A DNA stretch of 41,889 bases from an uncultured Eubacteriales bacterium (GTDB taxonomy: Bacteria; Bacillota_I; Bacilli_A; RF39; UBA660): positions 1 to 41,889 of the forward strand of contig CAJPPJ010000002.1 of NCBI GenBank assembly GCA_905372515.1. Direction: 5' to 3'. Below the pieces are notes generated by a model, which saw only the letters and a list, made by a program, of their open reading frames with translations, was not told the DNA's origin and ran no database searches. The position numbers were made by a program, and so were the translations under genes. This document shows positions 3,795 through 40,151 of this stretch, one piece after another; position 1 is the first letter of the stretch; each line of letters starts with the position of its first letter.

Positions 3795-3803
3795 GGAGGT
3801 TAA

Positions 3804-4022
3804 ATGTTAAAAGATATATTATTAATTCTTTTAGGAATTGGAATAGGATCGTTAATTGGATTCTTAATAGCTAAAAAATATATGGAAAAATATTTAGAAA
3901 AGAATCCTCCAATTAATGAAGATATGATTAAAATGTTAATGAATCAAATGGGAAGACCAGTGAATCAAAAACAAATTAACCAAATGATGAAACAAATGAA
4001 AAACAAACAACAAACTAAGTAA
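3804..4022 (+). CDS. UPF0154/YneF-family small membrane protein
   Basis: 72 aa. One N-terminal TM helix followed by [37 protein letters not shown], which matches the YneF-type pattern from memory. RBS GGGAGG. Confidence 0.7.
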
Positions 4023-4040
4023 ATTTAGTTTGTTGTTTTT
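4005..4040 (+). terminator. rho-independent terminator after the yneF-like gene
   Basis: A 13-bp perfect stem (AAACAACAAACTA at 4005-4017, TAGTTTGTTGTTT at 4026-4038) runs into a T tract. Confidence 0.6.
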
Positions 4041-4118
4041 ACATATAAAAATAATCTTTAATTTATTTTAAGTTTTAAAAAAATTTATAAGTTATAATAA
4101 CTATAATAGAGGTTTATT

Positions 4119-11917: not shown

Positions 11918-11918
11918 A

Positions 11919-16532: not shown

Positions 16533-16609
16533 TAAATCTTTTTTTGATTTTTAATTTTTAAGGTATATAATGAAATTGTAGAAACAATTAGGATTGGAGA
16601 AAAAGATTT

Positions 16610-23097: not shown

Positions 23098-24354
23098 ATG
23101 AAGAAAAAATTATTTTTATTGTGTATTTTATTATTAATACCATTTATTACTTTTGCTGATGAAGAAAAAGAAAAGAAAGATCATACTTTAACTAATAAAA
23201 ATTTAATAGTTGAATGTATTTATAGTGATGGAGGATTATATTCTTATGAATATAATGAAGCAGAAGATAAGTTTGTAACTAATAGACAAGAATTTTTAGG
23301 AACAGGTAAAAAAGTTGTACCATCCAATATAGTTTTTTTATCAGAACTTACATCTAATAATGAAACGCTTACAGTAGTAGATAAAGATTTAACATGTAAA
23401 AGATATATTTATACTGGTGTATCTAAAAAAGAAGATGAAGAAGCTAGTAAAAAAAATGTTCAAAACATTTATATGTTTATTAAAGGTAGTAATTCTGGAG
23501 AAGATCCTATAAGAATAAATGAAGCAAATATTGATAGTTATACCGGTAAATGGTATACAATAGGTATTCCATTAGTAAAGACAGAGATTAGAAAAGCTTT
23601 AGAAACAGCTATTATAGAACAAAAAAAGCATGAATTAGTAAATCAAAGATATAGATTATTATCTTCTGATACTGTAACACCTAGAAAGATATGTTATTTT
23701 GAATCTTCAACTAAGACAGATAATATTTCCACTAAAAAAGATATAATAAGTGCTCATATATATGACAATTATACTTTAATTAAAACAGCAGATGATTATT
23801 ATAATTTACTTACTAAAGAAGAAAGTAAAACTATTGATAATCTTTGTAAAGAATCAAAAGATGGAAAGATATATTTAAATGATTCAGTAGTATCTGCTAC
23901 TGGAGATTCTAGTGGTGGTGCTAAAATAACTGCTAAAACTTATGATAATAAAAGACAAACACATTTAACAATTTCCGAAAAACAAAGTAAGGTTAACTTT
24001 TTAGAGTATAGAAAAGTATCTGAAAATAATATGCAAGAAAAAGAAAGTGACGATAAACTTTGTGAATCTATTCCAAATGTTGCTAAAGTCTTAAGAACAA
24101 TTATTAGTTTTGGAAGAATAGGAATAGGTGCAATAGTAATAATTCTTATTGCAGTTGAAATACTTCAATTTGTATCTAGTTTGTCACCAAAAGATCAACT
24201 TCCAATTACAATTAAAAAGATTAGAAATAGAATTATATTATTAATAGTTATTTTATTATTACCATTAATTACTAATCTTATTGTTAGTTTATTAAAGAGT
24301 GCAAACACTATAGAAACATCAACTATACAAGTTATAGATTGTTTATTTAAATAG
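23098..24354 (+). CDS. secreted protein with C-terminal two-helix VirB2/TrbC pilin-like membrane hairpin
   Basis: Signal peptide (MKKKLFLLCILLLIPFITFA|DEE), then about 300 aa hydrophilic. The C-terminus is IGIGAIVIILIAVEILQFV, a short K/R loop, then IILLIVILLLPLITNLIVSLL. Confidence 0.6.
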   Translation: MKKKLFLLCILLLIPFITFADEEKEKKDHTLTNKNLIVECIYSDGGLYSYEYNEAEDKFVTNRQEFLGTGKKVVPSNIVFLSELTSNNETLTVVDKDLTCKRYIYTGVSKKEDEEASKKNVQNIYMFIKGSNSGEDPIRINEANIDSYTGKWYTIGIPLVKTEIRKALETAIIEQKKHELVNQRYRLLSSDTVTPRKICYFESSTKTDNISTKKDIISAHIYDNYTLIKTADDYYNLLTKEESKTIDNLCKESKDGKIYLNDSVVSATGDSSGGAKITAKTYDNKRQTHLTISEKQSKVNFLEYRKVSENNMQEKESDDKLCESIPNVAKVLRTIISFGRIGIGAIVIILIAVEILQFVSSLSPKDQLPITIKKIRNRIILLIVILLLPLITNLIVSLLKSANTIETSTIQVIDCLFK

Positions 24355-24362
24355 GAGAAAAC

Positions 24363-26597
24363 ATGCCAATATTAGATATATTAAAAACAATTGATATTGC
24401 AGAACTTGCCGTACAAATAATTGGTTTATTAGCAAGTAGATGGTTTATGCTAAATGGTATTATTTATATAATAAGATCACTTAGTTATTTTGTTGACTCT
24501 CAATTTGTAAATTTAATCGGTATGATTTATAAATATTTTAATTTGCTTTTAAAAGGTGAGATGTTTAATGAACAAATAGTATCTCAATTGTTATCTAGTA
24601 TATATGTATTTATTGGTCTTATTATATTTTTTAGATTAGCAACAGTACTTATAAAATATTTAGTTAATCCTGAAACTATAGAAAGTTCAAGTGATAGTAA
24701 AAGTGGTTTATTTTCAGGACTTGTAAAAAGAATTGTAATAGGTAGTATTATGATTGCTTTGATACCATTTATATTTTCTACTATGAATAAACTTCAAGTA
24801 GCTATAATAGAAGATAATGTTGTACAAAATATTTTTATTCAAAATGAAGCATTTAAAGCTTTTAATAAAAGACATGCTCAAAATGGAGGACAATATTTAG
24901 CAAATTATGTATTAGCAGGTTTTATAAAACCTAATAATAATAGTTCTTCTGCAATTAAGATGAGTTATGAATCAATGAAAAAATCTGCTAATCCTGATTT
25001 AATAAATATAAATGATGGAGTAGTACCAGGAGTTATTGTTAAATATAGTTATACTTATTATTTTATAGTGTCTACATTCGTTCTTTTTTATATCTTTAAA
25101 ATAATGATAGGATATGCTATAGATATTATTACAAGATTTTTTAAAACTCTTTTATATCAACTTATGGCACCTATTGCTATAGTTGAATATATGATTAGTG
25201 GAAATGTTGGAATTTTTGAAAAATGGAAAACTAGTGTAATAGCTAATTATTTATCTTTATTTGTTAGAATGTTATCTATTTGGTTTACAATATTTATCTT
25301 ATCTCTTATGACAGCAGATGGTTTACCAAATGGTAATTTACTTAAGACAGATGATGATTTATTAAGAGCAATAATAATTATAGCTTTAATAGCATTTATG
25401 AAAGATTTACCTAATTATGTTGGTCAAATAATTGGTTTTGATTTAAAACAAGAAAGTTCTGCTATGGGAATAGTTAGTGGAGCTGCTAAAGCTGTTGTTG
25501 GAGCAGCAGGAGCAGGTCTTATGGCTGGAAGTGGAATTATAGGAAGTTCTTTAAACAGGTTAGGTGGAGCTTTAAATAGAAATATTGGTAATAAGTTAGC
25601 TGGAGCTAGAGAGGCTAGTAGAAATGCTCTTAATAGAGGAAGAGAAATGGGACTTAGTGGTGATCAATTAAGGCAAGCTAGTAGAAATGCTATAAGAGAT
25701 TATGGTAATAGCCAAGTAGCAGAAAGAAGAAGTAGAGGTAATGCTTTACAAAGAATGAGAAATACTGCAGCAGAAGGTGTAAGAAATAATGCAATGAATG
25801 ATGTTAGAGATTCTGTTAGTGGACTTACAAGTATTGCAGATCATATATCAGGACTTCATGAAATTGGAGCTCCAGCAGCTGCACAAAACTTATTTAATAA
25901 AATGTTTCCAGAAAATAGAAATCAAGGTGGAGCTCAAAATAATCAACAACAAAATCAAAATAATCAACAACAAAATCCAATAATACCAAGACCTAATAGA
26001 GGAAGACATTTTGACTTACTTAATGAAAGTAATTTAGATAATATAAATGCCACAGGTAATAATCTTACTAGAGATGAATCTATTAATAATATGACTGATT
26101 TCTTGTTTAGAGCAGATAATAATCAAGATTATAGTGATTACCTTCAAGATGTCCAAAATGATAATAATCTTACATCTGGTGTAAGTGCTGAAGATAGAAA
26201 TATTGTTTTAACAAGAGCAGGAATAAATGATCCTAATTCTAATATTGTTAGAAATTCTCATACATTAGAAGAAATAGCTAGAAATATATCTAGTCATTCA
26301 AATGGAACAATAAGCTATGAACAAGCATATGAAACAACTAGAACATATATTGAAGGAGCAGGTATTCAAGCACAAAGTAGATATACTGTAACCGAAAGTA
26401 ATGGAACAACTCATACTATTGATATACCTTGTGTTGATCAAAATGGTAATTTCTTAAGAACAGGAGAATATACTTTATCAGATAATAATATAGCAGATAT
26501 TACTAATGATATTAAAAATAACTATTGGGGAGAAACAGCAAGAGATTACTTTGATACTAATTTACAAGAAAATAATGGAGGAGTATCTAGAAAATAG
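24363..26597 (+). CDS. polytopic membrane protein with VirB6/TrbL-like organisation and long N/Q/R-rich tail
   Basis: At least 6 predicted TM helices over the first 360 aa or so. A Gly/Ala-rich stretch (GIVSGAAKAVVGAAGAGLMAGSGIIGSS) follows, then about 340 aa of low-complexity hydrophilic tail. The start lies 8 nt after the upstream gene (RBS GGAGAA). Confidence 0.6.
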   Translation: MPILDILKTIDIAELAVQIIGLLASRWFMLNGIIYIIRSLSYFVDSQFVNLIGMIYKYFNLLLKGEMFNEQIVSQLLSSIYVFIGLIIFFRLATVLIKYLVNPETIESSSDSKSGLFSGLVKRIVIGSIMIALIPFIFSTMNKLQVAIIEDNVVQNIFIQNEAFKAFNKRHAQNGGQYLANYVLAGFIKPNNNSSSAIKMSYESMKKSANPDLININDGVVPGVIVKYSYTYYFIVSTFVLFYIFKIMIGYAIDIITRFFKTLLYQLMAPIAIVEYMISGNVGIFEKWKTSVIANYLSLFVRMLSIWFTIFILSLMTADGLPNGNLLKTDDDLLRAIIIIALIAFMKDLPNYVGQIIGFDLKQESSAMGIVSGAAKAVVGAAGAGLMAGSGIIGSSLNRLGGALNRNIGNKLAGAREASRNALNRGREMGLSGDQLRQASRNAIRDYGNSQVAERRSRGNALQRMRNTAAEGVRNNAMNDVRDSVSGLTSIADHISGLHEIGAPAAAQNLFNKMFPENRNQGGAQNNQQQNQNNQQQNPIIPRPNRGRHFDLLNESNLDNINATGNNLTRDESINNMTDFLFRADNNQDYSDYLQDVQNDNNLTSGVSAEDRNIVLTRAGINDPNSNIVRNSHTLEEIARNISSHSNGTISYEQAYETTRTYIEGAGIQAQSRYTVTESNGTTHTIDIPCVDQNGNFLRTGEYTLSDNNIADITNDIKNNYWGETARDYFDTNLQENNGGVSRK
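25935..25976 (+). repeat. perfect 2 x 21-bp tandem repeat (CAAAATAATCAACAACAAAAT) inside the tail-coding region
   Basis: Read directly from the sequence. It encodes QNNQQQN twice and is in frame (7 codons per unit). Confidence 0.9.
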
Positions 26598-28676: not shown

Positions 28677-31538
28677 ATGTATACACCTATATATTTAAAA
28701 ACAAATTACTCATTTTTAGAAAGTACTATTAGAATTGAAAAACTAATAGATTTTGCAGTAGATAAAAAATTTAAATATGTTTGTATTACTGATATAAATA
28801 TGATAGCTGTTATGGAGTTTTATCATTTAGCTAAAAAACATAATTTATTACCAGTAGTAGGTTTAGAAATAACTTTATCTGCTTTAAAAGTTTTAGTATT
28901 TGGTAACTATTATTCACTTATTAAACTTGCGACTTTATCTAGTGAAAAAGAACTGGATATAGATGATTTATCTGATGATTTAACTTATGTTTTACCATAT
29001 GATTCTAAATCTCTACTAGATGTATTAAAAAATAAAAATATTTATTTAGGATATAAAAATGAAAAAGAAGAAATAGAACTTAGCTTATTATCTGAAAATA
29101 TTATTTTTTTACCTAAACATACTTCTTTAACTAAAAAAGATGCAGAGAACTTTAAATATTTATCTATGCTTAAAGGAGAAAAAATAGATAAAGAAGAAAT
29201 AAATAATTATTATATAGAAAATATAGATAAACAAGAAGAAACAGATAGATTCTTATCTAATTTTGTTTTAGAAATAAAAAAAGAAGAAGATGTATTACCA
29301 ATATATGATAAAGATAAAGATGCAGAAAAAACTTTAATAGAACTATCTATTAAAGGTCTTTGTTTAAGACTTAATAAAGATTATAAAGATATAGATATTA
29401 GTTATAAAGAACGTTTAAAAAAAGAATTAGATACAATAAATACTATGAATTTTGCTAATTATTTTTTAGTAGTTAGTGATTTTATTAGATATGCAAAAAG
29501 AAAAAAAATACTAGTGTCTCCAGGAAGAGGTTCAGTAGTAGGTAGTTTGGTAGCATATACAATTGGTATAACAGATATAGATCCTTTAAAATATAATTTA
29601 TATTTTGAAAGATTTTTAAATGCTTCTAGGATTACTATGCCAGATATTGATACTGACTTTCCTGATATTTATAGAGAAGATGTAATAGATTATGTTAAAG
29701 AAAAATATGGAAAGGAAAATGTATCTGGAGTAGTGACAGTATCTACTATGCAAACTAAACAACTAGTTAGAGAAATATCAAAACTTTTTTCTGTTGAAAA
29801 TAAAATAGTAGAAAGAATATTAAAATTAGTGGATTCTAAAACATCTTTAAAAGAAGCAGTGGATAAAAGTTTAAATTTAAAAGAAATATTTAATTCTAAT
29901 TTAGAACTTAGAAAAATATATGATTTATGTATATTTTTTGATTCATTTCCACATCATACATCTATTCATGCATCAGCAATAATAATTTCTAATAAAAATT
30001 TAAAAACCATAATACCTTTAATTAAAAGTAATGATTTATATTTAACTTCGTATACTATGAATTATTTAGAAGAATTAGGACTATTAAAAATGGATTTTTT
30101 AGGTATTAAGAATTTAACAACTATTATGAATATTATTAATGATATTAAAAAGAATACAAACGAAGAAATAGACTTTAATAAGATAGATTTAAATGATAAA
30201 AAGACATTAGAATTATTTAGAAATGCTAATACTAAAGGTATATTTCAATTCGATAGTATTGGTATGAGAAGATTTTTATATAATTTAAAAGTAGATAATT
30301 TTTCGGATATTTATGCTGCAATAGCTCTTTATAGACCAGGTCCTCAAGAAAATATTCCTAGTTATATAAGAAGGAAAGAAGGTAAAGAAAAAGTTGAATA
30401 TTTAGATAAGTCTTTAGAACCTATCTTATCTTCAACTTATGGAATTTTAATATATCAAGAACAACTTATGGAAATAGCTCATATTTATGCAGGTTTTACT
30501 TTAAAAGAAGCAGATTCTTTTAGAAAAGCAGTATCTAAAAAGAATTTAAGTGATTTAAAAGAACTAGAAGAAAAATTTATAAGTTCATCTTTAAAATTAA
30601 ATAGGGATATTAATGTTACTAAAAAAATTTTTAATTTAATATTAAAATTTGCTAATTATGGTTTTAATAAATCACATTCTGTAGCTTATTCTGTAGTAGC
30701 ATTTAAACAAGCTTATTTTAAAGCACATTATAAAGAATATTTTTATAAAGAAATATTACTTAATGAATTAAATGATAAGGAAAAAACAGAAGAATATATT
30801 AATGAAGCGAAAGTACTAGGAATAGAAGTTAAAGGACCTAATATATTAAAATCAACTTTAGAATATTCTTTAGAAGAAAATAAATTATATTATCCACTTA
30901 TTGGTATTAAAGGAATAGGTTTAGTCTTAGCAGAAAAGATAAATAATATTACTAAATCTCTTGATATATATGATATGTTTGTAAAATTATATGAAATAGG
31001 TATAAGAGAAAATATTTTTGAAATATTAATAAAGTCAGGAGCATTTGATTCTTATAATATAAATAGAAAAAGTTTAATGGAAAGTTTATCATCTCTTATT
31101 AATTATGCTGAATTAAAACTTAATTATTTTTCAGAAGATATTAAACCTGTAATAGTTAGTTATAAAGATTATACTGAATTAGAAAAACTAGAAATGGAAA
31201 AAGATCTTCTAGGATTTTATTTATCTAGTTATCCTACATCTATATATAAAAAAGATGGTTTTATTGAAGTTAAAGATTTAAATAAATATATAAATAAAGA
31301 AGTTACAATAGTACTTTATATTAATAGAGTAAAAGAAATAATAACTAAAAATGGTGAAAAAATGGCATTTGTCGATGCTAGTGATAAAGATAAAGTTTCT
31401 TTAACTATTTTTCCAAAGACATATAAAGATATAGAGATAAATAAAAAAGATATTGTTGAAGTTAAAGGACAGGTAGTTATTAGAAATGCTGAAAGACAAA
31501 TAATAGTTAAAACTATAAAAAAAATAACAAGTATTTAA
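28677..31538 (+). CDS. dnaE: DNA polymerase III alpha subunit, DnaE type (short, PHP metal ligands degenerate)
   Basis: Polymerase core motifs are present: GRGSVVGSLVAYTIGITDIDP, MPDIDTDF, LLKMDFLGIKNL, RPGP, FANYGFNKSHS, and a C-terminal OB-like region. The N-terminus reads IYLKTNYSFLES where HLHVHSEYSLLDG is usual. Confidence 0.93.
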   Translation: MYTPIYLKTNYSFLESTIRIEKLIDFAVDKKFKYVCITDINMIAVMEFYHLAKKHNLLPVVGLEITLSALKVLVFGNYYSLIKLATLSSEKELDIDDLSDDLTYVLPYDSKSLLDVLKNKNIYLGYKNEKEEIELSLLSENIIFLPKHTSLTKKDAENFKYLSMLKGEKIDKEEINNYYIENIDKQEETDRFLSNFVLEIKKEEDVLPIYDKDKDAEKTLIELSIKGLCLRLNKDYKDIDISYKERLKKELDTINTMNFANYFLVVSDFIRYAKRKKILVSPGRGSVVGSLVAYTIGITDIDPLKYNLYFERFLNASRITMPDIDTDFPDIYREDVIDYVKEKYGKENVSGVVTVSTMQTKQLVREISKLFSVENKIVERILKLVDSKTSLKEAVDKSLNLKEIFNSNLELRKIYDLCIFFDSFPHHTSIHASAIIISNKNLKTIIPLIKSNDLYLTSYTMNYLEELGLLKMDFLGIKNLTTIMNIINDIKKNTNEEIDFNKIDLNDKKTLELFRNANTKGIFQFDSIGMRRFLYNLKVDNFSDIYAAIALYRPGPQENIPSYIRRKEGKEKVEYLDKSLEPILSSTYGILIYQEQLMEIAHIYAGFTLKEADSFRKAVSKKNLSDLKELEEKFISSSLKLNRDINVTKKIFNLILKFANYGFNKSHSVAYSVVAFKQAYFKAHYKEYFYKEILLNELNDKEKTEEYINEAKVLGIEVKGPNILKSTLEYSLEENKLYYPLIGIKGIGLVLAEKINNITKSLDIYDMFVKLYEIGIRENIFEILIKSGAFDSYNINRKSLMESLSSLINYAELKLNYFSEDIKPVIVSYKDYTELEKLEMEKDLLGFYLSSYPTSIYKKDGFIEVKDLNKYINKEVTIVLYINRVKEIITKNGEKMAFVDASDKDKVSLTIFPKTYKDIEINKKDIVEVKGQVVIRNAERQIIVKTIKKITSI

Positions 31539-31584
31539 ACTATATTGTAAATTGTGTTAGAATATTAAACGTAAAGGAGAAAAG

Positions 31585-32397
31585 ATGGAACTAGTTTTTA
31601 AAACTAATGATTATTTATTAGCATGGTATTTACTTTTTAAACCATCTACTGATACAGAGTTTCAAAAAATTAAATTAAAACTTTGGAAAAATTATACTGA
31701 AGAATATAAAAAAATTGAAAAAGATAATGTTAAAATAATGCAAGATACAGATAATTTTATACCTAATAATGATTTAATATATGATAAAATATTTGAGACA
31801 GATTACTTTAAAAAATATAAGACAAAAACTGATAAAAATATGTTTATGTTAAGAGAAGCATATGATATTAATAAAAAAGTTATAGATAAAGAATTAAAAG
31901 ATATTTTAAAACATAAAATTAGAAATATTTATGAAGTAATAGTTATGTATCCAGAATTAAATATATCAGAATATGTTAAAAATAATCCCAAAAAAGTTAT
32001 AGTGTGGGGAAGAAAAGAAGATGAAGAAGATGCTTTAGGATCAGTGTTTAAAATATTATATACTGCATTAAAATATGAACTTAGTGATTTAAAAATATCT
32101 AGAGAAAATATTTTAAGTTCTATAATAGATATGATTATAACTAATGAATTACAATCAAGATTATTAAATAAATCTTGTTATGAAGAAGGTTTTAAAAAAC
32201 TATTAGAAATAAAACATACTTTATATCCTTATTTTCTTATGTATTTAGGTATTATAGAAAAAGAAGAACTTCTTAAAAGAAGTAAGTATGATAATATAAA
32301 ATTTGATGTAAAAGTTATAGAAAATGGATTAGCAAAAATTGATATAAAAGAATTTATTACATTTTGTGATGAAAATTATCAATATTTAATTCATTAA
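31585..32397 (+). CDS. hypothetical protein (270 aa) between dnaE and polC
   Basis: Clean ORF with RBS AAAGGAGAA. I recognise no motif. Confidence 0.65.
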   Translation: MELVFKTNDYLLAWYLLFKPSTDTEFQKIKLKLWKNYTEEYKKIEKDNVKIMQDTDNFIPNNDLIYDKIFETDYFKKYKTKTDKNMFMLREAYDINKKVIDKELKDILKHKIRNIYEVIVMYPELNISEYVKNNPKKVIVWGRKEDEEDALGSVFKILYTALKYELSDLKISRENILSSIIDMIITNELQSRLLNKSCYEEGFKKLLEIKHTLYPYFLMYLGIIEKEELLKRSKYDNIKFDVKVIENGLAKIDIKEFITFCDENYQYLIH

Positions 32398-32408
32398 TTG
32401 GAGGAAAG

Positions 32409-35400
32409 ATGTTAGATAATAAAAAAATATTTGAAGTTTTAAATATAACTGATGATAAGTATATAAATTCTATAGAATTTACTAAAATAAAACATAAAAC
32501 TAAAGATAAGATTTTATTAGTTTATATAACATCAAAAATAAGATTAGATTTAGATTTTTTTCATAAATTAAAAGAAGGATTTAAATCTCTTTTTTTAGTT
32601 AATGAAGTAGAAATATTTTTAGAAGTAGATGAATATAAAGATGATTACTTTAAAGATTATTACGAAGAGTTAATAGAAGATTATAAAGATTTGTCTATTT
32701 ATAGATATTTAAATAGTATTTATAAGAAAGATGGAGTTTATAAAATAGATGTAATAAATGATGCTGAAAAAGAAAAAATTCAAGATGTAGTTGATAATAT
32801 AAGTGAAGATTTGAAAAAATTAGGTTATTTATATGATATAGATCTTTATATTAATGAAGAAAAAAATAAACTTCTTGACATGGAACTAGAAAAAGAAAAA
32901 CAAGCAAGTTTAAATAGTGTTAGTTTTAGTGACAATAAACCTAGTTATACACCAACTTCACCTATAGTTAGAACTAATTTAAGAGAAATGAAAAATGATT
33001 ATGAAATAACATCATTAAATAATTTAGTAGTAGATTCATCTAAAGATAATATTTATTGTGTAAGAGGAATTATCTTCGAAGTTGAATTTCGTGAAACTAA
33101 AAAAGAAAATGATATTTATATAGTTAAGATAAATGATGGTACTAATTCTTTGGTAATTAAGACTTTTGTTAAGAAAACTGATAGTGAAATGCAAAGTTTT
33201 TTAGGAAAATTATTAAAAATTGGTAATAATATTTGTGTAAGAGGAGTATTATCACATGATCAATACGATAATGGTGAACTTAGTTTAATGTTTAGAGAAA
33301 TAAAACAAATAGAAATAGTAAAAGAAGAAATAAAAGAAAAAAGAAAATCTAGAGTAGAACTTCATGCTCATTCTAAATTATCAGTTCTTGATTCTTCAAT
33401 CGATCCAAAAGATTTAGTTAAACATGCTTATAAGCTTGGACATAGAGGAGTAGCTATAACAGATCATGATGGAGTTTTAGCATTTCCAGAAGTTTTTAAA
33501 GAAGTTAAATCTATTAATAAAACATTATCTGAAGAAGAAAAATTTAAAGCTTTATATGGTACAGAATTAGTACTTGTCGATGATTTTGTAGAAATAGTTA
33601 TTAATCCTAAAAGAAATGTATTAGATCAAGAATATGTAGTATTTGATACAGAAACAACAGGACTTGAAGCTAAAGATAAAAATCAAATGATAGAAATAGG
33701 TGCTGTTAAGATTAAAAATGGAAAGATTATAGATAGATTTGATGAACTTATTGCTTGTCCTTATCCACTTGATGAAAAAATAATATCTTTAACTAATATC
33801 ACAAATGAGATGTTAAAAGATAAAAGGAGTGAAGAGGAAGTAGTTAAATCTTTCTTAGAATTTACTTCATCTAGTATTTTAGTAGCGCATAATGCAAGAT
33901 TTGATATGTCGTTTTTAAATTATGCTATAGAAAAGTATAATTTACCAACTATAAAAAATGATATTTTAGATACGCTTATTTTATCTAGATACTTAACACC
34001 AAATGAAAAATATCATAATTTATCCACTATAACTAAAAGATATCAAATAGATTTTAGTGAAGAAGGACATCATAGAGCAGATTATGATGCTGAAGCTACA
34101 GCTTTAGTACTTTTAAAGATGTTTGAAAAATTAGATGTTAAAACAATAGAAGAATTAAAAAAAATAAAAATAATAGATAAGACAATAGTATTTAATAATC
34201 ATATTGAAATGTTAAATGATACTTTTGTAGTATTTGATACAGAAACAACTGGTCTTAATGCAGTAAATGATAAACTTATTGAAATAGGTGCTGTTAAAAT
34301 TAAAAATGGTGTTATTATAGATCGATTTGACGAACTTATTAATCCAGGAATATCTATACCAGAAAAAATTACTGAAATAACTACTATTACCAATGAAATG
34401 GTTAAAGATAAAAGAAGTGAAAAAGAAGTAGTAAAAGATTTTATTGAATGGATTGAAGATTATCCAATGGTAGCACATAATGCTCACTTTGATGTTTCAT
34501 TTATTAGAAATAGTTTAGCTAATAATAATTATGGTAATTTAAATAATCCTGTAATTGATACCTTAGTTTTATCAAGATTCTTAGATAACGAAGAAAAAAG
34601 ACATTCATTATCAGCAATAACTAAAAGATATGAAATAGAATTTAGTGAAGAAGGTCACCATAGAGCAGATTATGATGCTGAAGCTACAGCTTTAGTATTT
34701 CATAAAATGTTACAAAAAATAGCTCCAAGAGATATTTTAACTCTAGATGATTTACCGAATATTATTAATAAAGATGATATTCATAAATTTGGTAGAACCT
34801 ATCATATAAATTTAATAGCACAAAATAGAGAAGGTTTAAAAAATTTATTTAAAATAGTATCTTATGCTAATACTAAATATTTTTATAAAGGAGAAGCTAG
34901 GATACTTAGAAGTGTTTTAGAAAAGTTAAGAGAAAATATTTTAATTTCTTCTGGTTGTTATCAATCAGAAATCTTTGTGGAGTCTAGATATGTATCTGAA
35001 AATGAACTTGATACTATGATAGATTTCTATGACTTTGTTGAAGTTCAACCACCAGTATGTTATTCACAATTAATTGACTTAGGAGATTTTACATCTATAG
35101 AAGAAATAAAATCTAAAATAAAATATATTATTGAAAGAGTAAAATCTAGAGGAAAAATAATAGTTGCAACAGGAGATGTACATACTCTTAATAAAGAAGA
35201 TGAAATATATAGAAAAATTTTAATAAATCAAAAAGTACCTGGTGGAGGAAGACATCCATTAAATAGAAATAATATTAAAAATATTCCAAACACTTATTTT
35301 AGAACTACAGAAGAAATGCTTGAAGAATTTAACTTTTTAGATGAATCATTAAGAGAAGAAATAGTAGTAGATAATACTTTAAAAATTTTAGATTTATGTG

Positions 35401-37340
35401 AAAATATTGAAGTAATTATTGATACTAAAGGAATACCATTTTCACCTAAAATAAAAGATAGTGATAAAGAAACTAGAAGAATAGTCTATGAAAAAGCTCA
35501 TGAACTTTATGGAGAAGAACTTCCAGAATATGTCGAAAATAGAATAGAAGAAGAATTAAAAGGAATAATCGGTGGAGGATTTGATGTTATTTATTTAATA
35601 GCACAAAAACTTGTTAAAAAAAGTAATGATGATGGTTACATTGTAGGATCAAGAGGTTCTGTTGGATCTAGTTTTGTTGCAACTATGATGGGTATTACAG
35701 AAGTTAATCCTTTAAAAGCTCATTATTTATGTCCTAATTGTAAACATTCTATTTTTGAAATAGATGGTAAAAGTATATCAGAAACATATTCTTCAGGTTA
35801 CGATTTACCAGAGAAAAAATGTCCAAAATGTGATAGCTTAATGAAAGGTGAAGGACAAGATATGCCTTTTGCTACTTTCTTAGGATTTAATGCAGATAAA
35901 GTTCCGGATATAGATTTAAATTTCTCAGGAGACTATCAATCTCATGCTCATGACTATACAAAAGTTTTATTTGGAGAAGATAAAGTATTTAGAGCTGGTA
36001 CAGTTGGAACTGCAGCAGAAAAAACAGCATTTGGTTATGTGAAAGCTTACTTAGAAGAAAAAGGTATTACTAATTTTAGAAAAGCGGAAATAGAAAGAAT
36101 TGCTAAGAAGTTAGTTGGTGTTAAAAGAACAACTGGACAACATCCAGGAGGAATAGTAGTAGTACCAGATTATATGGATATTTTTGATTTTACTCCATAT
36201 CAATATCCTGCTAATGAAAAAGGTGAATGGTATACAACTCACTTTGATTATCATGCAATTGATGAATGTCTATTAAAATTAGATATACTAGGACATGATG
36301 ATCCTACAATGATAAAAATGTTAGAAGATTTATCTGGAATAGATATCAAAAATATTAATGTAGGAGATGAGAAAATACTTTCTTTATTTTCTGGAACAGA
36401 AGTAATGAATGTAACACCGGAACAAATTGGTTGTAAAATAGGTACTCTTGGTCTTCCAGAACTTGGAACTGATTTTGTAATTAATATGTTACTTGAAACA
36501 AAACCTAAAACCTTTTCTGAGCTTGTTAAAATATCAGGTTTATCTCATGGTACTGATGTATGGAATAATAATGCTCAAGATCTAGTAAAATCAGGAATAG
36601 AATTTAAAAATATTATTGGATGTCGTGATGATATAATGGTTAATCTTATCAGTTATGGTATAGAACCACTTAAATCTTTTAAAATAATGGAATTTGTTAG
36701 AAAAGGTAAACCATCTAAAGAAAAAGATCAGTGGTTAGAATATGCAGCTATTATGAAAGAACATAATGTACCAGAATGGTATATAGAATCATGTCATAAA
36801 ATAAAATATATGTTCCCTAAAGCTCATGCTTGTGCTTATGTTTTAAGTGCACTTAGAATTGCATATTTTAAAGTTTATTATCCAATATATTACTATGCAG
36901 CATATTTTTCTATTAGAGAACACGATTTTGATGTATATGCTATGGTAAATGGATATGATAAGATAAATGAAACTATTTTAATGTTAGAAGAAAAAGGTTA
37001 CGGAAGAAGTAATAAAGAAGATAGTGTTTTAGGTTGCTTAAGAGTTGTTAGAGAAGCAAGTAGTAGAGGTATCAAGTTCTTAACTCCAAGAGTTAATGAA
37101 AGTGAAGCTAAAAAGTTTAAAGTAATAGATGATAAAACTTTATTATTACCATTTATTGCTATGGATGGACTTGGAGAAATAGTTGCAGAAAATATAGTTA
37201 AAGAAAGAAATATAAAAGAGTATACTAATATAGAAGAATTTGAAAAACGAGGTAAAATTTCAAGCACACTTATAAAAGAAATGAGACTTTTAAATATGTT
37301 TGATGGAATGGACGAATCTAGTCAACTAAGTCTATTTTAG
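32409..37340 (+). CDS. polC: DNA polymerase III PolC-type with duplicated 3'-5' exonuclease domain
   Basis: 1643 aa. PHP-N VELHAHSKLSVLDS and two DEDDh exonuclease units are followed by PHP-C YHINLIAQNREGLKNLF. Also present: GSRGSVGSSFVATMMGITEVNP, Zn-finger-like CPNCKH...CPKCD, PDIDLNFSG, LLKLDILGHDDPT and FPKAHACAYV. Confidence 0.97.
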   Translation: MLDNKKIFEVLNITDDKYINSIEFTKIKHKTKDKILLVYITSKIRLDLDFFHKLKEGFKSLFLVNEVEIFLEVDEYKDDYFKDYYEELIEDYKDLSIYRYLNSIYKKDGVYKIDVINDAEKEKIQDVVDNISEDLKKLGYLYDIDLYINEEKNKLLDMELEKEKQASLNSVSFSDNKPSYTPTSPIVRTNLREMKNDYEITSLNNLVVDSSKDNIYCVRGIIFEVEFRETKKENDIYIVKINDGTNSLVIKTFVKKTDSEMQSFLGKLLKIGNNICVRGVLSHDQYDNGELSLMFREIKQIEIVKEEIKEKRKSRVELHAHSKLSVLDSSIDPKDLVKHAYKLGHRGVAITDHDGVLAFPEVFKEVKSINKTLSEEEKFKALYGTELVLVDDFVEIVINPKRNVLDQEYVVFDTETTGLEAKDKNQMIEIGAVKIKNGKIIDRFDELIACPYPLDEKIISLTNITNEMLKDKRSEEEVVKSFLEFTSSSILVAHNARFDMSFLNYAIEKYNLPTIKNDILDTLILSRYLTPNEKYHNLSTITKRYQIDFSEEGHHRADYDAEATALVLLKMFEKLDVKTIEELKKIKIIDKTIVFNNHIEMLNDTFVVFDTETTGLNAVNDKLIEIGAVKIKNGVIIDRFDELINPGISIPEKITEITTITNEMVKDKRSEKEVVKDFIEWIEDYPMVAHNAHFDVSFIRNSLANNNYGNLNNPVIDTLVLSRFLDNEEKRHSLSAITKRYEIEFSEEGHHRADYDAEATALVFHKMLQKIAPRDILTLDDLPNIINKDDIHKFGRTYHINLIAQNREGLKNLFKIVSYANTKYFYKGEARILRSVLEKLRENILISSGCYQSEIFVESRYVSENELDTMIDFYDFVEVQPPVCYSQLIDLGDFTSIEEIKSKIKYIIERVKSRGKIIVATGDVHTLNKEDEIYRKILINQKVPGGGRHPLNRNNIKNIPNTYFRTTEEMLEEFNFLDESLREEIVVDNTLKILDLCENIEVIIDTKGIPFSPKIKDSDKETRRIVYEKAHELYGEELPEYVENRIEEELKGIIGGGFDVIYLIAQKLVKKSNDDGYIVGSRGSVGSSFVATMMGITEVNPLKAHYLCPNCKHSIFEIDGKSISETYSSGYDLPEKKCPKCDSLMKGEGQDMPFATFLGFNADKVPDIDLNFSGDYQSHAHDYTKVLFGEDKVFRAGTVGTAAEKTAFGYVKAYLEEKGITNFRKAEIERIAKKLVGVKRTTGQHPGGIVVVPDYMDIFDFTPYQYPANEKGEWYTTHFDYHAIDECLLKLDILGHDDPTMIKMLEDLSGIDIKNINVGDEKILSLFSGTEVMNVTPEQIGCKIGTLGLPELGTDFVINMLLETKPKTFSELVKISGLSHGTDVWNNNAQDLVKSGIEFKNIIGCRDDIMVNLISYGIEPLKSFKIMEFVRKGKPSKEKDQWLEYAAIMKEHNVPEWYIESCHKIKYMFPKAHACAYVLSALRIAYFKVYYPIYYYAAYFSIREHDFDVYAMVNGYDKINETILMLEEKGYGRSNKEDSVLGCLRVVREASSRGIKFLTPRVNESEAKKFKVIDDKTLLLPFIAMDGLGEIVAENIVKERNIKEYTNIEEFEKRGKISSTLIKEMRLLNMFDGMDESSQLSLF
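33632..34725 (+). repeat. tandem duplication (offset 588-591 nt) of the exonuclease-domain coding segment within polC
   Basis: GTAGTATTTGATACAGAAACAAC occurs at 33636 and at 34227. An identical 39-mer CATAGAGCAGATTATGATGCTGAAGCTACAGCTTTAGTA occurs at 34071-34109 and 34659-34697. Confidence 0.9.
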
Positions 37341-37348
37341 GGAGAATA

Positions 37349-39070
37349 ATGGATAATATAGTAGAAGAAGTAAGAAAAAAAACAGATATAGTAGATTTAA
37401 TATCAGAATATATACCTTTAATTAAAAAAGGAAAAAATTATTTTGGAGTATGTCCTTTTCATGATGATTCTAATCCATCTATGTCGGTATCGCGAGAAAA
37501 ACAAATATATAAATGTTTTTCTTGTGGAGCTAGTGGAAATATTTATAACTTCTTAATGGATTATGAACATATTGATTTTAAAGAAGCACTAAGTAAATTA
37601 TCATCAAAATTAGGGATTAACATAGAAAATACTACTATTAAAGTAAATAATAAGTTTGATAAATTTTATGAAATATATGATTTAACAAGTAAACTATATC
37701 AAAATAATTTATTATCTGAAAAAGGCAGTAGTGCTAGAAATTATTTGAAGTCCAGAAATATAAGTCTTGAAGAAATAAAAAAATTTAATATAGGTTTATC
37801 TTTTTCTAATAATCAAGTAGTAAAACAATTAGAAAAAAAATATAATTTATTAGATTTAGAAGATGTTGGACTTATTTCTAATAATCATGATATTTTTCAA
37901 AATCGTATTATGTTTCCACTAATGAATTTAGAAAATAAGACAGTAGCATTTTCTGGAAGAATTTATGATACTAATAGTAAAGATTCTAAATATATAAATA
38001 CTAAAGAAACTAATATCTTTAAAAAGGGGGAAATATTATATAATTATTATGCTTGTAAAGAAGATGTAAGAATTAAAAAATATTTAATTTTAGTAGAAGG
38101 TTTTATGGATGTTATAAGACTTTCTACAATAGGTATTAAAAATGTAGTAGCTACTATGGGAACTTCACTAACTATAAATCAAATAAAATTATTAAAAAGG
38201 TTGTCTAATAATATTTATTTATGTTTTGATGGAGATAATCCTGGAAAACTTGCAAATATAAATAATGGTGAAGAACTCATAAAACATGATATTAATATAA
38301 AAGTAATATCTTTGGATAATAATGATGATCCAGATTCATATGTTTTAAAAAATGGAAAAGAAAAATTTGAAACTTTAATAGAAGAAGCGAAAAGTTATCA
38401 AGAATATTATATGGAATATCAAAAAGATAATATTTCTACTACAGATATTAAAGAAGTAACAGAGTATATTAATAAAGTATTAGAAAAATTAAAATATAAT
38501 AATAACGCTATAGAAAAAGAGTTAGTTTTGAAAAAACTTGCAAAAGATTTTGATATATCGTATAATACCCTAGAAAATCGCTTAAAAGATTATAGTTTAG
38601 AAAAAAATACTAATTTAGAAGTAAAAAGCCCTAAAAAAGAAGAAAAAATAACAGTTAATAAATATTATGTTGCTAGTAGAGATTTGATAATGGGAATGTT
38701 ATACAATAACAAAATTATAGATATTTATAAAAACTATAATATTCAGATGATCAATAATAAGTTTGATGCGATTTTAAATGAAATATTATATAGATATGAT
38801 GTTTATGGAAGTGTAGAAGTTGCTGAAATATTTGATGAGTTTATATCGAATGATGAAGAAAGAGAATTCTTTAAAACTTTAATTACTGATGAAGAAGTAT
38901 ATAGTGAGGATTACTATATTGATTGTATTAAAAGTATTAATGAATGTGTAACTAATCAAAAAATCAAATATTTGCAAAAGATGATTGAAGAAGAAAAAGA
39001 TGTTAATAAGCAAATAGAATATCTAAATACTATGGGGATACTGAAAAATAATTTAGAGAAGGGGATTTAA
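37349..39070 (+). CDS. dnaG: DNA primase
   Basis: Zinc finger CPFHDDSNPSMSVS..KQIYKCFSCGASGN, RNA polymerase domain, and Toprim EGFMDV...DGDNPG. Confidence 0.95.
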   Translation: MDNIVEEVRKKTDIVDLISEYIPLIKKGKNYFGVCPFHDDSNPSMSVSREKQIYKCFSCGASGNIYNFLMDYEHIDFKEALSKLSSKLGINIENTTIKVNNKFDKFYEIYDLTSKLYQNNLLSEKGSSARNYLKSRNISLEEIKKFNIGLSFSNNQVVKQLEKKYNLLDLEDVGLISNNHDIFQNRIMFPLMNLENKTVAFSGRIYDTNSKDSKYINTKETNIFKKGEILYNYYACKEDVRIKKYLILVEGFMDVIRLSTIGIKNVVATMGTSLTINQIKLLKRLSNNIYLCFDGDNPGKLANINNGEELIKHDINIKVISLDNNDDPDSYVLKNGKEKFETLIEEAKSYQEYYMEYQKDNISTTDIKEVTEYINKVLEKLKYNNNAIEKELVLKKLAKDFDISYNTLENRLKDYSLEKNTNLEVKSPKKEEKITVNKYYVASRDLIMGMLYNNKIIDIYKNYNIQMINNKFDAILNEILYRYDVYGSVEVAEIFDEFISNDEEREFFKTLITDEEVYSEDYYIDCIKSINECVTNQKIKYLQKMIEEEKDVNKQIEYLNTMGILKNNLEKGI

Positions 39071-39071
39071 G

Positions 39072-40151
39072 ATGTCTAAAGAATTAAAAACTTTTAAAGA
39101 AAGAGAAGAATATTTAATAAAAAAATGAAAAGAAGAGGGATTTATTACATATGAAGAAATAGCTAAGACTTTAAAAGGTTTAGATGTAGATTCTGATAAT
39201 TTAGATGAACTATATAATAAGTTAATTGCTGATAATATAGAAGTTATTTCGGAAGAAGAAAGTGTAGATGCAACAGAAGCAGAATTATTTACTGAAGATT
39301 TAGAAAATAGTAAAGATGTAAAAATAAATGATTCAGTAAAAATGTATTTAAAAGAAATAGGTAAAATTAAACTTTTATCTGCAGATGAAGAATTTGAATA
39401 TGCTAAAAGAGCAGTAGAAGGTGATGAAGAAGCTAAGAAAAAACTTAGTGAATCTAACTTAAGATTAGTTGTATCTATTGCTAAAAGATATTTAGGTAGA
39501 GGTTTAAGATTTTTAGACCTTATACAAGAAGGTAACATTGGATTAATGAAAGCAGTAGATAAGTTTGATCCAGATAAAGGGTTTAAATTTTCTACATATG
39601 CTACGTGGTGGATTAGACAGGCTATTACTAGAGCTATAGCAGATCAAGCAAGAACTATAAGAATACCAGTTCATATGGTTGAAACTATGAATAAATTAAA
39701 AAGAGAAGAAAGGCAATTACAACAAGAATTAAATAGAGAACCAACTGATGAAGAACTTGCTGAAAGAATGGGAATGCCAGTAGATAAAATAAGAGAAGTG
39801 CATAAGATAGGACAAGATCCAGTATCGCTTGAAACACCTATTGGTGAAGAAAATGATTCACATTTAGGAGACTTTATTAAAGATGAAAGCTCTATGTCTC
39901 CAGAAAAATATGCTATTAGTGAAATGTTGAAGAGTGAACTAAATGATGTATTAAAAACTCTTACTGAAAGAGAAGAAAAAGTATTAAGACTTAGATTTGG
40001 AATTGATGATGGTCAAAGCTTAACATTAGAAGAAGTAGGTAAGATATTTGGTGTTACTAGAGAAAGAATTAGACAAATAGAATCTAAAGCTTTAAGAAAA
40101 TTAAAACATCCATCTCGTAGTAAAAAATTAAAAGATTTCTTAATAAATTAA
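39072..40151 (+). CDS. rpoD: RNA polymerase primary sigma factor (SigA/RpoD) with one in-frame TGA at 39126-39128
   Basis: Regions 1.2 to 4.2 are unmistakable ([77 protein letters not shown]). The frame continues upstream through a TGA to ATG 39072 ([29 protein letters not shown]), and that stretch aligns to region 1.1. Confidence 0.85.

Follow-up and report, generated by a model that had tools for sequence, protein, structure and literature searches.

The window, which is the whole 41,889-nucleotide stretch of DNA analyzed here, comes from a genome with a G+C content of 24% and belongs to a gut Firmicute lineage that is uncultured and very poor in G+C. A series of replication genes is located on its forward strand, arranged as follows:

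28677-31538, + strand: dnaE, encoding 953 aa, in which the N-terminal PHP motif is degenerate ('IYLKTNYSFLES', 'ITDINM'), from profile matches and PHP residues read by eye
31585-32397, + strand: conserved ORF of 270 aa directly upstream of polC, in conserved synteny
32409-37340, + strand: polC, PolC-type DNA polymerase III, 1643 aa, from the ORF, NF001688 and Pfam (PHP, two RNase_T, DNA_pol3_alpha, finger, HHH_6)
37349-39070, + strand: dnaG primase, directly downstream of polC, from a profile match

The DnaE protein lacks the PHP histidines and is a polymerase without a proofreader of its own, and the 270-aa ORF has no match in Pfam or NCBIfam. Searches of the window for tRNA genes and Rfam families yielded no matches. 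A change in the genetic code is unlikely, as the in-frame TGA found in sigA is isolated and TGA terminates ftsA and infB normally.

The polC product was recognized by the curated NCBIfam equivalog model NF001688 with 1860.3 bits (cutoff 873) and by TIGR01405 with a score of 1676 (cutoff 1043). Pfam domains were identified in the order PHP (aa 317-392), two RNase_T stretches (E = 7e-76), the remainder of PHP after aa ~797, DNA_pol3_alpha (1022-1295), finger (1298-1452) and HHH_6 (1554-1636); the pair of exonuclease domains is thus placed between the two halves of the PHP domain, where the initial annotation had located it. The polymerase motif reads 'KVPDIDLNFS', with D1167 and D1169 in invariant columns of a 50-sequence alignment; the catalytic aspartates of the Enterococcus faecium enzyme are D972/D974 (PMC12592400). 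The N-terminal 315 aa show no Pfam match to PF14480, PF11490 or PF01336 (NI/NII and OB), domains that are poorly conserved in PolC proteins (Timinskas 2014, PMC3919608). The protein had been described as about 200 aa longer than usual, and this excess is real, since the NCBIfam PolC model comprises 1445 positions and a single exonuclease domain is found in 117 of the 120 PolCs closest to it; the extra domain contributes ~197 aa. The region concerned is organized as follows:

33354-33593, + strand: N-terminal part of the PHP domain, aa 316-395, with H319, H321, D328, H353 and E386 (Pfam PHP 317-392; invariant columns; residues read from the sequence)
33624-34148, + strand: exo1, first DnaQ/DEDDh domain, aa 406-580, with D413, E415, D499, H555 and D560 (Pfam, motifs, conservation, AF2 and Foldseek)
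34149-34214, + strand: connector between exo1 and exo2, aa 581-602, including a duplicated 'IVFNNHIEMLND' leader (low AF2 pLDDT; leader homology in alignments)
34215-34742, + strand: exo2, second DnaQ/DEDDh domain, aa 603-778, with D610, E612, D695, H751 and D756 (Pfam; alignment to single-exonuclease PolCs)
34797-35198, + strand: C-terminal part of the PHP domain, aa ~797-930, with H799, C850, D923 and H925 (second Pfam PHP stretch; alignment columns invariant or nearly so; residues taken from the sequence)

The PHP halves contain VELHAHS at aa 316 and YHINLIA at aa 798, and the nine-residue signature HHDHEH[C/H]DH, assigned from alignment invariants and motif order, is complete (here HHDHEHCDH); a PHP nuclease is classed as active when all nine metal-binding residues are present (PMC12926913).

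In both exonuclease copies the D-x-E of Exo I, the D of Exo II and the H-x4-D of Exo III are complete: Exo I (DTETTG) begins at aa 413 and 610 (nt 33645 and 34236), Exo II (AHNA) at aa 493 and 689, and Exo III (HHRADYDA) at aa 554 and 750. The 'YVVFD' of the first copy begins at nt 33633 and the 'FVVFD' of the second at nt 34224, an offset of 591 nt that becomes 588 nt past a one-codon indel. The copies are 58-60% identical in protein (58% over 190 aligned residues) and 70% identical in DNA. These measurements agree with the head-to-tail duplication at an offset of 588-591 nt, the protein identity of about 55-65% and the retention of every DEDDh catalytic motif in both copies that had been proposed by eye.

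An AF2 model (mean pLDDT 85, pTM 0.74) folds both exonuclease domains confidently, with pLDDT values of about 80-94 across the two and about 84-94 in exo1, whose columns in the underlying alignment are covered by three sequences only. The sole long segment of the modeled region with pLDDT <50, aa 577-596, corresponds to the connector, and its low confidence may reflect flexibility. The model aligns with the E. faecium PolC structure 9qpc_A over 1172 columns (TMq 0.67). When exo1 was modeled alone, its best Foldseek match was the exonuclease domain of 9qrn/9qpc (TMq 0.78, rmsd 2.1), and comparison with Escherichia coli epsilon gave a TMt of 0.85-0.87; an RNase H-like DnaQ fold is therefore predicted for exo1 as well as exo2. 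The native C-terminal tail 'INKDDIHKFGRTYH', which leads into the second half of the PHP domain, is kept by exo2 and is modeled as continuous at high pLDDT.

The second copy also looks like the counterpart of the canonical proofreader in several alignments, because MAFFT places the single exonuclease domain of relatives against exo2, its mean distance to single-exonuclease PolCs is shorter (0.42-0.44, versus 0.49-0.62 for exo1), it retains more of the family-conserved positions (183/195, versus 163/195 for exo1), and it carries the PolC-type residues R/S, as do other PolC exonuclease domains, at the positions where exo1 has Y535/N537 like free-standing paralogues. The PolC-conserved positions lost in exo1 include D425N, P450C/I and I520L.

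The double-exonuclease architecture is found in two clusters of 1643-aa proteins, P0001 and P0002, with 21 and 374 member sequences (~395 together; 61 were read and 30 are listed). At least 22 distinct full-length variants, on contigs of up to 848 kb, were found among them, and both motif sets are present in every full-length one. Two GTDB species genomes hold the complete 405-aa double-exonuclease region, and independent ENA, NCBI and Logan assemblies encode PolC proteins of 1642-1643 aa. A more distant protein, P0003 (1631 aa, on a 156-kb contig), shares 57% PolC identity with the window, the same architecture and the gene order dnaE-orf-polC-dnaG. These observations confirm that the two-exonuclease PolC is genuine and is kept in a small group of uncultured AT-rich gut bacteria. 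An exhaustive search of 1.84 billion representative proteins identified no second PolC lineage with two exonuclease domains: the long PolCs P0011 (1651 aa), P0123 (1642 aa), P0159 (1607 aa) and P0172 (1918 aa) each contain one RNase_T domain and have their excess length elsewhere, and P0191 and P0197, initially scored as having two stretches, also contain one domain each. P0134, considered as a possible fourth double-exonuclease lineage, is a 582-aa PolC fragment with an exo1-like exonuclease domain, followed by a pilin-like gene; it is uninformative because the gene stops after this single domain on a 2.5-kb scaffold.

In a tree of exonuclease domains, exo1 of the three proteins makes up a clade with 95.5% bootstrap support, against 0-4% for pairing of the copies within a genome; in a tree of the non-exonuclease columns, the three double-exonuclease PolCs form a clade (99%) whose sisters are the single-exonuclease proteins P0052 and P0014. 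Together, the two clades point to a single old origin, at the root of the double-exonuclease group, so that the second copy would have been gained once, before the lineage of the window split from that of P0003. As to its source, related gut Bacilli contain a large family of stand-alone exonucleases of 198-203 aa (P0296-P0415) that are 51-59% identical to exo1 and whose best NCBIfam match is the exonuclease segment of the PolC model. They are encoded by real genes on long contigs, distant from polC, adjoining a Band_7/zinc-ribbon gene and, in one of two contexts, followed by spoIIGA and a sigma-factor gene. It is possible, if rather doubtful, that exo1 arose by the insertion or fusion of such a free-standing gene of ~199 aa instead of an in situ tandem duplication, a question of origin and not of function. 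Y535/N537 and an 'LKKI..I' tail are common to exo1 and the stand-alone proteins, and the mean distance of exo1 to them (0.73) is smaller than that to PolC exonuclease domains (0.85). However, the diagnostic columns of exo1 are divided 13:13 between the two groups, a neighbor-joining tree including the stand-alone proteins and distant PolCs joins them to exo1 with only 14% bootstrap, and the shared residues could represent convergent loss of intramolecular contacts. In addition, the 'IVFNNHIEMLND' leader of exo2 is homologous to the native PolC leader 'IVINPKRNVLDQ' between PHP and exonuclease, which fits tandem duplication of leader and domain together. Among the 120 best stand-alone matches, none has a longest contig equal in length to that of a double-exonuclease PolC cluster, a very weak hint that the clade may lack the stand-alone gene. 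Capture, if true, would mean that the clade moved a trans-acting exonuclease into its polymerase; in either case, attention is drawn to an unnamed family of free-standing PolC-exonuclease-like enzymes in gut Firmicutes.

The two copies also appear to have exchanged sequence in the following tracts, both of which were delimited from alignments:

34064-34109, + strand: Exo III tract of exo1, in concerted evolution with 34652-34697 and containing a 39-nt identical run
34652-34697, + strand: partner Exo III tract of exo2

The identity of 34071-34109 with 34659-34697 is exact and the run is maximal, as the initial annotation had observed in suggesting gene conversion or unusual constraint. As stand-alone proof this run was set aside, since a match at 13 codons whose amino acids are already the same has a probability of about 0.002 under the codon bias of a genome with 24% G+C; over the entire exonuclease domain, 79 identical codons were observed against 69.6 expected, a slight excess. 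The case for conversion is carried instead by lineage-specific changes common to both copies: both copies in the window encode EEG and both copies in L003 encode EDN, and synonymous TAT/TAC and GCT/GCA differences between these lineages recur in both. Among the 11 sites at which both paralogues share a lineage-specific state, five lie within 28 nt (34064-34091), with a scan P of about 0.008 that is optimistic because sites 34064-34066 may represent one mutational event. Site 34070, within the proposed tract, shows the orthologue pattern, suggesting patchy exchange. Short-tract gene conversion between the copies around Exo III is thus supported by the substitution patterns, and exo1 and exo2 may still be swapping short stretches there. 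The double-exonuclease polC would be an example of concerted evolution within an essential gene.

Estimates of dN/dS were 0.13-0.17 for exo1, 0.11-0.13 for exo2, 0.10-0.12 for the N-terminal part of PHP and 0.06 for the polymerase core, and dN was higher in the connector than in any other segment. At shallow divergence exo1 is not faster than exo2 (dN 0.060 versus 0.074), whereas at deep divergence exo1 is the faster-evolving copy, with 52.6% identity between the window and L001 against 60.8% for exo2. Despite this divergence of exo1, DxETTG, AHNAxFD and HHRxDYDA are unbroken, and none of the 10 catalytic positions varies among 18 full-length variants or in P0003. Judging from these comparisons, both copies are held under purifying selection with their catalytic sites complete.

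We consider it probable that a genuine doubled module is present, gained once and long ago, maintained by purifying selection and subject to ongoing gene conversion, in which exo2 is the canonical copy and exo1 a probably active extra exonuclease. According to this model, the proofreading DnaQ/DEDDh module within the PHP domain occurs as a tandem pair, both members of which have been retained. The second would be the counterpart of the normal cis-proofreader, keeping the PolC-specific residues and modeled as running into the C-terminal part of PHP. The first, a 3′-5′ exonuclease that most probably is still catalytically active on the evidence of its sequence, evolves somewhat faster, has lost a few PolC-specific residues and is linked to exo2 through a connector of low AlphaFold confidence; it would provide the replicase with another editing site. 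A candidate role is the editing of 3′ ends beyond the reach of a putatively docked exo2, such as those that might be left by DnaE, which has no proofreader and whose gene lies two genes upstream. A full division of labor may be suggested more tentatively still: both DnaQ domains would be active, the docked exo2 editing the primer terminus in cis and exo1, perhaps once free-standing, editing ends that exo2 is unable to reach, whether made by DnaE, ribonucleotide-terminated or frayed. The idea that the second exonuclease compensates for lost mismatch repair was weakened by the presence of a full-length mutS within the window.

It is unlikely that exo1 is non-catalytic, serving in binding of single-stranded DNA or 3′ ends, as a spacer or as a protein-interaction module, with its catalytic residues kept only for folding or metal binding. 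The loss of PolC-conserved positions and the faster evolution of exo1 at deep divergence would be consistent with such a role, for which the inactivated C-terminal half of DNA polymerase epsilon offers a precedent, one of the inactivated second exonuclease or polymerase modules that exist in other replicases. On the other hand, all five DEDDh residues and their motifs are invariant across exo1 domains of 52.6% identity and across the 18 variants, such residues are normally lost in inactivated DEDD domains, and the dN/dS of exo1 is the same as that of exo2. The reverse assignment, in which exo1, at its native junction with the PHP N-terminal part, is the working cis-proofreader and exo2 the accessory domain, is more improbable again: the native PHP strand and leader do directly precede exo1 and dN/dS is equal in both copies, but exo2 is closer to single-exonuclease PolCs, some PolC-specific residues lost from exo1 are still present in it, and it is exo2 that is followed by the high-pLDDT native tail into PHP, exo1 being followed by the low-confidence connector. 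An assembly or scaffolding artifact, in the form of a repeat stutter or chimera, is refuted for practical purposes, in line with the initial annotation: the window is metagenome-type sequence and contains one apparent error elsewhere (the sigA TGA, which is GGA in orthologues), but 30% of nucleotides differ between the copies, no stop codon interrupts the frame, and the many independent assemblies and the 57%-identical P0003 agree on the architecture.

Bacterial replicases almost universally proofread with one DnaQ-type exonuclease. Two intact cis copies, kept across 57% PolC identity in two known lineages, would constitute a natural experiment on the number of usable editing sites, the routing of primer ends and the separability of cis proofreading from proofreading in trans (of DnaE), with D413A/E415A and D610A/E612A as clean mutational handles. 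If both DnaQ domains are active, the window PolC would, together with its intact PHP signature, become the first replicative polymerase in which two, and possibly three, editing sites work in one chain.

A canonical PolC, as in Bacillus subtilis, Geobacillus kaustophilus (3F2B) and E. faecium (9QPC/9QRN), shares with the window protein an N-terminal region, a PHP domain split by the exonuclease, palm, thumb and fingers, and HhH; it differs in having one DnaQ domain instead of two in tandem with ~197 aa extra, and the window protein has no Pfam match for NI/NII or OB. The single exonuclease domain is the canonical architecture, present in 86% of PolCs, and the variants listed by Timinskas (2014) include forms that lack Exo and forms in which OB is duplicated, none with two Exo (PMC3919608). 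A 2026 survey of PolC likewise makes no mention of a two-exonuclease architecture (PMC12926913), and our literature search found no report of a replicative polymerase with two DnaQ-type exonuclease domains, as the initial annotation had supposed. This novelty is qualified by the Clostridia, in which PolC/DnaE1 enzymes that combine in cis two putative proofreading nucleases of unlike type, a PHP that looks active and a DnaQ domain, have already been described (PMC12926913). Those polypeptides resemble the window protein in carrying more than one putative proofreading nuclease, but their nucleases have different folds, whereas here it is the DnaQ module that occurs twice, bringing the candidate sites to as many as three. 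The DnaQ domain of B. subtilis PolC can complement DnaE3 in trans (PMC12926913). Precedents for the separate steps also exist: the tandem OB duplication in Lactococcus PolC is a domain duplication that affects OB instead, and the exonuclease fused to the N-terminus of Bacteroidetes DnaE1 is an independent gain of DnaQ, in single copy and at another place (PMC3919608).

The stand-alone exonucleases P0296-P0415 resemble exo1, including the C-terminal helix and the Y/N at 535/537, but are separate genes elsewhere with no polymerase attached. Tandem DEDDh domains as in the window also occur in P0135, P0179 and P0258 (two RNase_T with BRCT), P0139 (three RNase_T with GIY-YIG and UVR) and P0150 (two RNase_T with a DinG-type helicase), which are repair-type proteins and not replicative polymerases. 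In the catalytic subunit of the family B replicative DNA polymerase epsilon of eukaryotes, the whole exonuclease-polymerase module is tandemly duplicated and the second module is inactivated, whereas both exonuclease copies of the window PolC carry catalytic residues. Since it has two RNase_T domains instead of the canonical one, the protein is classified from its sequence as a variant of PolC-type DNA polymerase III with a doubled exonuclease domain.

The polC product (1860 bits with NF001688, a 1445-position NCBIfam model whose cutoff is 873) carries the Pfam domains DNA_pol3_alpha, finger and HHH_6, together with a PHP domain and two stretches of RNase_T (PF00929; E = 7e-76) containing all ten catalytic residues expected of two DEDDh exonucleases. 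The tandem exonuclease domains proposed in the initial annotation were thus recovered, with motif coordinates that were right to within 1–3 nt. The features of the gene are as follows.

32409–37340, + strand: polC, 1643 aa
33354–35198: PHP region (Pfam PHP, aa 317–392), interrupted by the exonuclease domains
33624–34148: exo1, the first exonuclease domain (aa 406–580; catalytic D413, E415, D499, H555, D560)
34215–34742: exo2, the second exonuclease domain (aa 603–778; catalytic D610, E612, D695, H751, D756)

The two copies, spaced at 591/588 nt in the DNA, show 58% protein identity over 190 aligned residues and 70% DNA identity overall (62% at third codon positions), and the 39-nt identity between 34071–34109 and 34659–34697 is exact and maximal.

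The arrangement is real and occurs beyond the window. Among the 120 closest PolCs, two exonuclease domains were found in three protein clusters only: the window's own (P0001, with 21 members), another at 91% identity to it (P0002, with 374 members) and P0003 (1631 aa, 56–57% identical over the full length). Examination of 61 cluster members, of which 30 are listed, identified at least 22 distinct full-length variants of 1642–1643 aa, and both motif sets were present in every full-length variant examined (drawn from assemblies in ENA, NCBI and Logan, with contigs as long as 848 kb). Two species-representative MAGs in GTDB, CAUUHY01 and CAUTAF01 (“uncultured Eubacteriales”), likewise encode all 405 aa of the double region; all remaining genomes found with this query matched a single copy. 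Recurrence in independent assemblies, in the two MAGs and in P0003 bears out the earlier view that the duplication is not an assembly stutter. The gene order around P0003 on a 156-kb contig (dnaE, a 266-aa ORF, polC, dnaG) is the same as in the window, whose G+C content is 20–28%; the relatives carry the labels of Bacilli or Mollicutes MAGs, with the gut of humans (Hadza) and rabbits as the source of some of their records.

An exhaustive HMMER search of 1.84 billion representative proteins was performed with the 405-aa double region. P0003, representing the clade, scored 415 bits over query residues 2–405 in one stretch, and the runner-up scored 253 bits and matched a single copy. Since a double-exonuclease PolC should rank near the top and none from another lineage did so in this search, no other such lineage is indicated. 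No further case emerged from PolCs of unusual length or from those given as having “2 stretches”: all contain a single RNase_T domain. Tandem RNase_T domains do occur in non-polymerase proteins (P0135, P0179, P0258, P0139 and P0150), as two copies with BRCT, three with GIY-YIG and UVR, or two with a DinG-type helicase. A 2.5-kb metagenome scaffold (L042, 556–2482) encodes a 582-aa N-terminal PolC fragment (P0134) that ends just after the exonuclease domain and is followed by a pilin-like gene; either this polC is truncated or the scaffold is chimeric.

A neighbor-joining tree of the exonuclease domains unites all three copies of exo1 in one clade (95.5% of 200 bootstraps), and pairing of both copies from one genome receives 0–4%. 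On 776 columns outside these domains, the three double-exonuclease PolCs likewise form a clade (99%), with the single-exonuclease PolCs P0052 and P0014 as nearest outgroups; a single gain of the second domain, at the root of the clade, follows from these trees. The more canonical, conservative copy is exo2: MAFFT aligns the relatives' single domain with it, its mean distance to single-exonuclease PolCs is 0.42–0.44 (0.49–0.62 for exo1), and at 65 columns conserved at ≥85% in 147 single-exonuclease PolCs it keeps 183 of 195 states (163 of 195 for exo1). Between the window and L001, a locus of the same clade, exo1 is 52.6% and exo2 60.8% identical. Comparison of the window with the L003/L004/L005 lineage (dS about 0.4–0.6) gave the following dN/dS values.

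exo1: 0.13–0.17
exo2: 0.11–0.13
PHP-N, the N-terminal half of PHP: 0.10–0.12
polymerase core: 0.06

The ten catalytic positions, five in each domain, are invariant in 18 full-length variants and in P0003, and with exo1 identity down to 52.6% at deep divergence, it is implausible that about 18 motif residues were retained by chance. Both modules are therefore intact DEDDh domains under selection, with an old single origin.

A search with exo1 alone identified more than 100 stand-alone proteins of 198–203 aa that are 51–59% identical to it. These (P0296–P0415, about 199 aa) represent a large unnamed family in related gut Bacilli, about 55% identical to PolC exonuclease domains; their best NCBIfam match is the exonuclease segment of the PolC model, and NCBIfam holds no dedicated model for them. 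Two are real genes on long contigs (L038, 8001–8597; L040, 8001–8600), each adjoining a Band_7/zinc-ribbon gene, which in L040 is followed by spoIIGA and a sigma-factor gene. In a word-index search with a 207-aa exo1 query, P0001–P0003 were missing from the best 120 matches although they contain the query, so absence from such lists does not mean absence from the database. Capture of a stand-alone gene as the source of exo1 would fit the shared Y535/N537 (“EKYHNL”, versus “RHSLS” in PolC exonucleases and exo2) and the similar C-terminal tail; diagnostic columns are divided 13:13 between stand-alone and PolC affinities, and the grouping of exo1 with the stand-alones has only 14% neighbor-joining support. 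In favor of in situ tandem duplication of leader plus domain, exo2 has a leader (IVFNNHIEMLND) homologous to the native PHP-to-exonuclease one. Judged from these sequences, tandem duplication is the likelier origin, with capture a considerably less probable one, and the stand-alone-like residues of exo1 may reflect loss of intramolecular contacts.

Gene conversion across Exo III had been suggested on the basis of the 39-nt run. By itself the run is weak evidence (13 identical codons, P about 0.002 given the same amino acids and strong codon bias), and it is the four-way comparison of paralogues and orthologues that speaks for conversion. Both window copies carry GAA-GG(A/T) (E-G), TAT and GCT, versus GAT-AAT (D-N), TAC and GCA in both L003-lineage copies. 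Across 540 aligned positions, 108 sites follow the orthologue pattern, four are “cross” sites and 11 are “concerted”, five of the latter lying within 34064–34091 (scan-statistic P about 0.008). The window E-E-G is probably derived and copied between paralogues, because the relatives and P0003 carry E-D at its first two positions. Because the tract is patchy, being broken by an orthologue-pattern site (34070), and three of its concerted sites lie side by side, the evidence that the copies exchanged short tracts is good but not overwhelming.

The genes dnaE-orf270-polC-dnaG-sigA (28677–40151 in the window; also L001 and L003–L005) bring together both replicative polymerases, primase and sigA; among the loci compared, dnaE adjoins polC in the double-exonuclease clade only.

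28677–31538: dnaE (PHP region, 28677–29060)
31585–32397: 270-aa ORF directly upstream of polC, without Pfam or NCBIfam match
39073–40151: sigA/rpoD

The position of the 270-aa ORF is conserved in the clade (37–93% identity) and in the single-exonuclease loci L006, L009, L010 and L012 (31–36%), which suggests an uncharacterised partner of polC. The sigA frame contains a TGA at codon 19 (39127–39129; LIKK*KEEGF) in place of the GGA (Gly) of the L003, L004 and L005 orthologues (LIKKGKEEGF). TGA is the normal stop of ftsA and infB in the window, so that this codon has the look of a single nonsense mutation or an error in the sequence, not of recoding. Elsewhere in the window, 9404–13256 holds full-length mutS (domains I–V), whose downstream neighbor is, in place of mutL, a 445-aa ORF with only a weak HopA1 match; several large ORFs (2607–6977 and 14559–18121) with Big_2, LRR, TSP3 or WG-repeat matches look like surface or secreted proteins, and ORFs at 23098–26597 gave no family matches.

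An AlphaFold2 model of PolC aa 300–1480 (50-sequence alignment, exo1 covered by three sequences only) had a mean pLDDT of 85.1 and a pTM of 0.74. Both exonuclease domains were modelled confidently (10-residue block means mostly 80–94), as was the junction of exo2 with PHP-C, the C-terminal half of PHP (75–97); the exo1–exo2 connector (aa 577–596), the sole long stretch below 50, is of low modelling confidence. The model matched full-length Enterococcus faecium PolC (9qpc_A) with a TMq of 0.67, and exo1 alone (pLDDT 84.7) matched best the 9qrn/9qpc exonuclease domain (TMq 0.78, rmsd 2.1 Å), followed by other DnaQ domains. In 9QPC this domain lies at the periphery under the thumb, flanked by strands 3 and 4 of PHP (PMC12592400).

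Both copies are probably active catalytically, exo2 presumably as the docked cis-proofreader. More tentatively, exo1 might be a tethered extra editor, possibly for DnaE-made or otherwise inaccessible 3′ ends. The neighboring DnaE lacks its own proofreader and, read by eye, has IYLKTNYSFLES and ITDINM where PHP histidines are expected; according to a 2026 survey, the PolC DnaQ domain of Bacillus subtilis can complement DnaE3 in trans (PMC12926913). Because all nine residues of the PHP metal-site signature HHDHEHCDH are retained in PolC (H319, H321, D328, H353, E386, H799, C850, D923 and H925), PHP is a possible third nuclease site by the criterion of that survey. Compensation for lost mismatch repair is unlikely, since full mutS lies in the window.

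Full-text literature searches returned nothing relevant to a double-exonuclease PolC, and term searches of the 2026 survey, which covers >3000 complete genomes, found no mention of one (PMC12926913). In PMC5054071, “two exonuclease domains” denotes a single domain that has two InterPro entries. Together with the HMMER result, this agrees with the initial view that the architecture is not known to have been described. The 315-aa N-terminal region of the window PolC (32409–33353), in which Pfam detected no NI, NII or OB domain, differs from that of most close relatives. The double-exonuclease PolC is of moderate-to-high value for replication biology, its mechanism being a proposal. Set beside the catalogue of Timinskas et al. 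(2014; PMC3919608), in which 86% of PolCs are canonical, 6% are without Exo, a tandem OB duplication occurs in Lactococcus and a double Exo is absent, it is a real new architectural variant, without an earlier description found, that is confined to a small uncultured clade.
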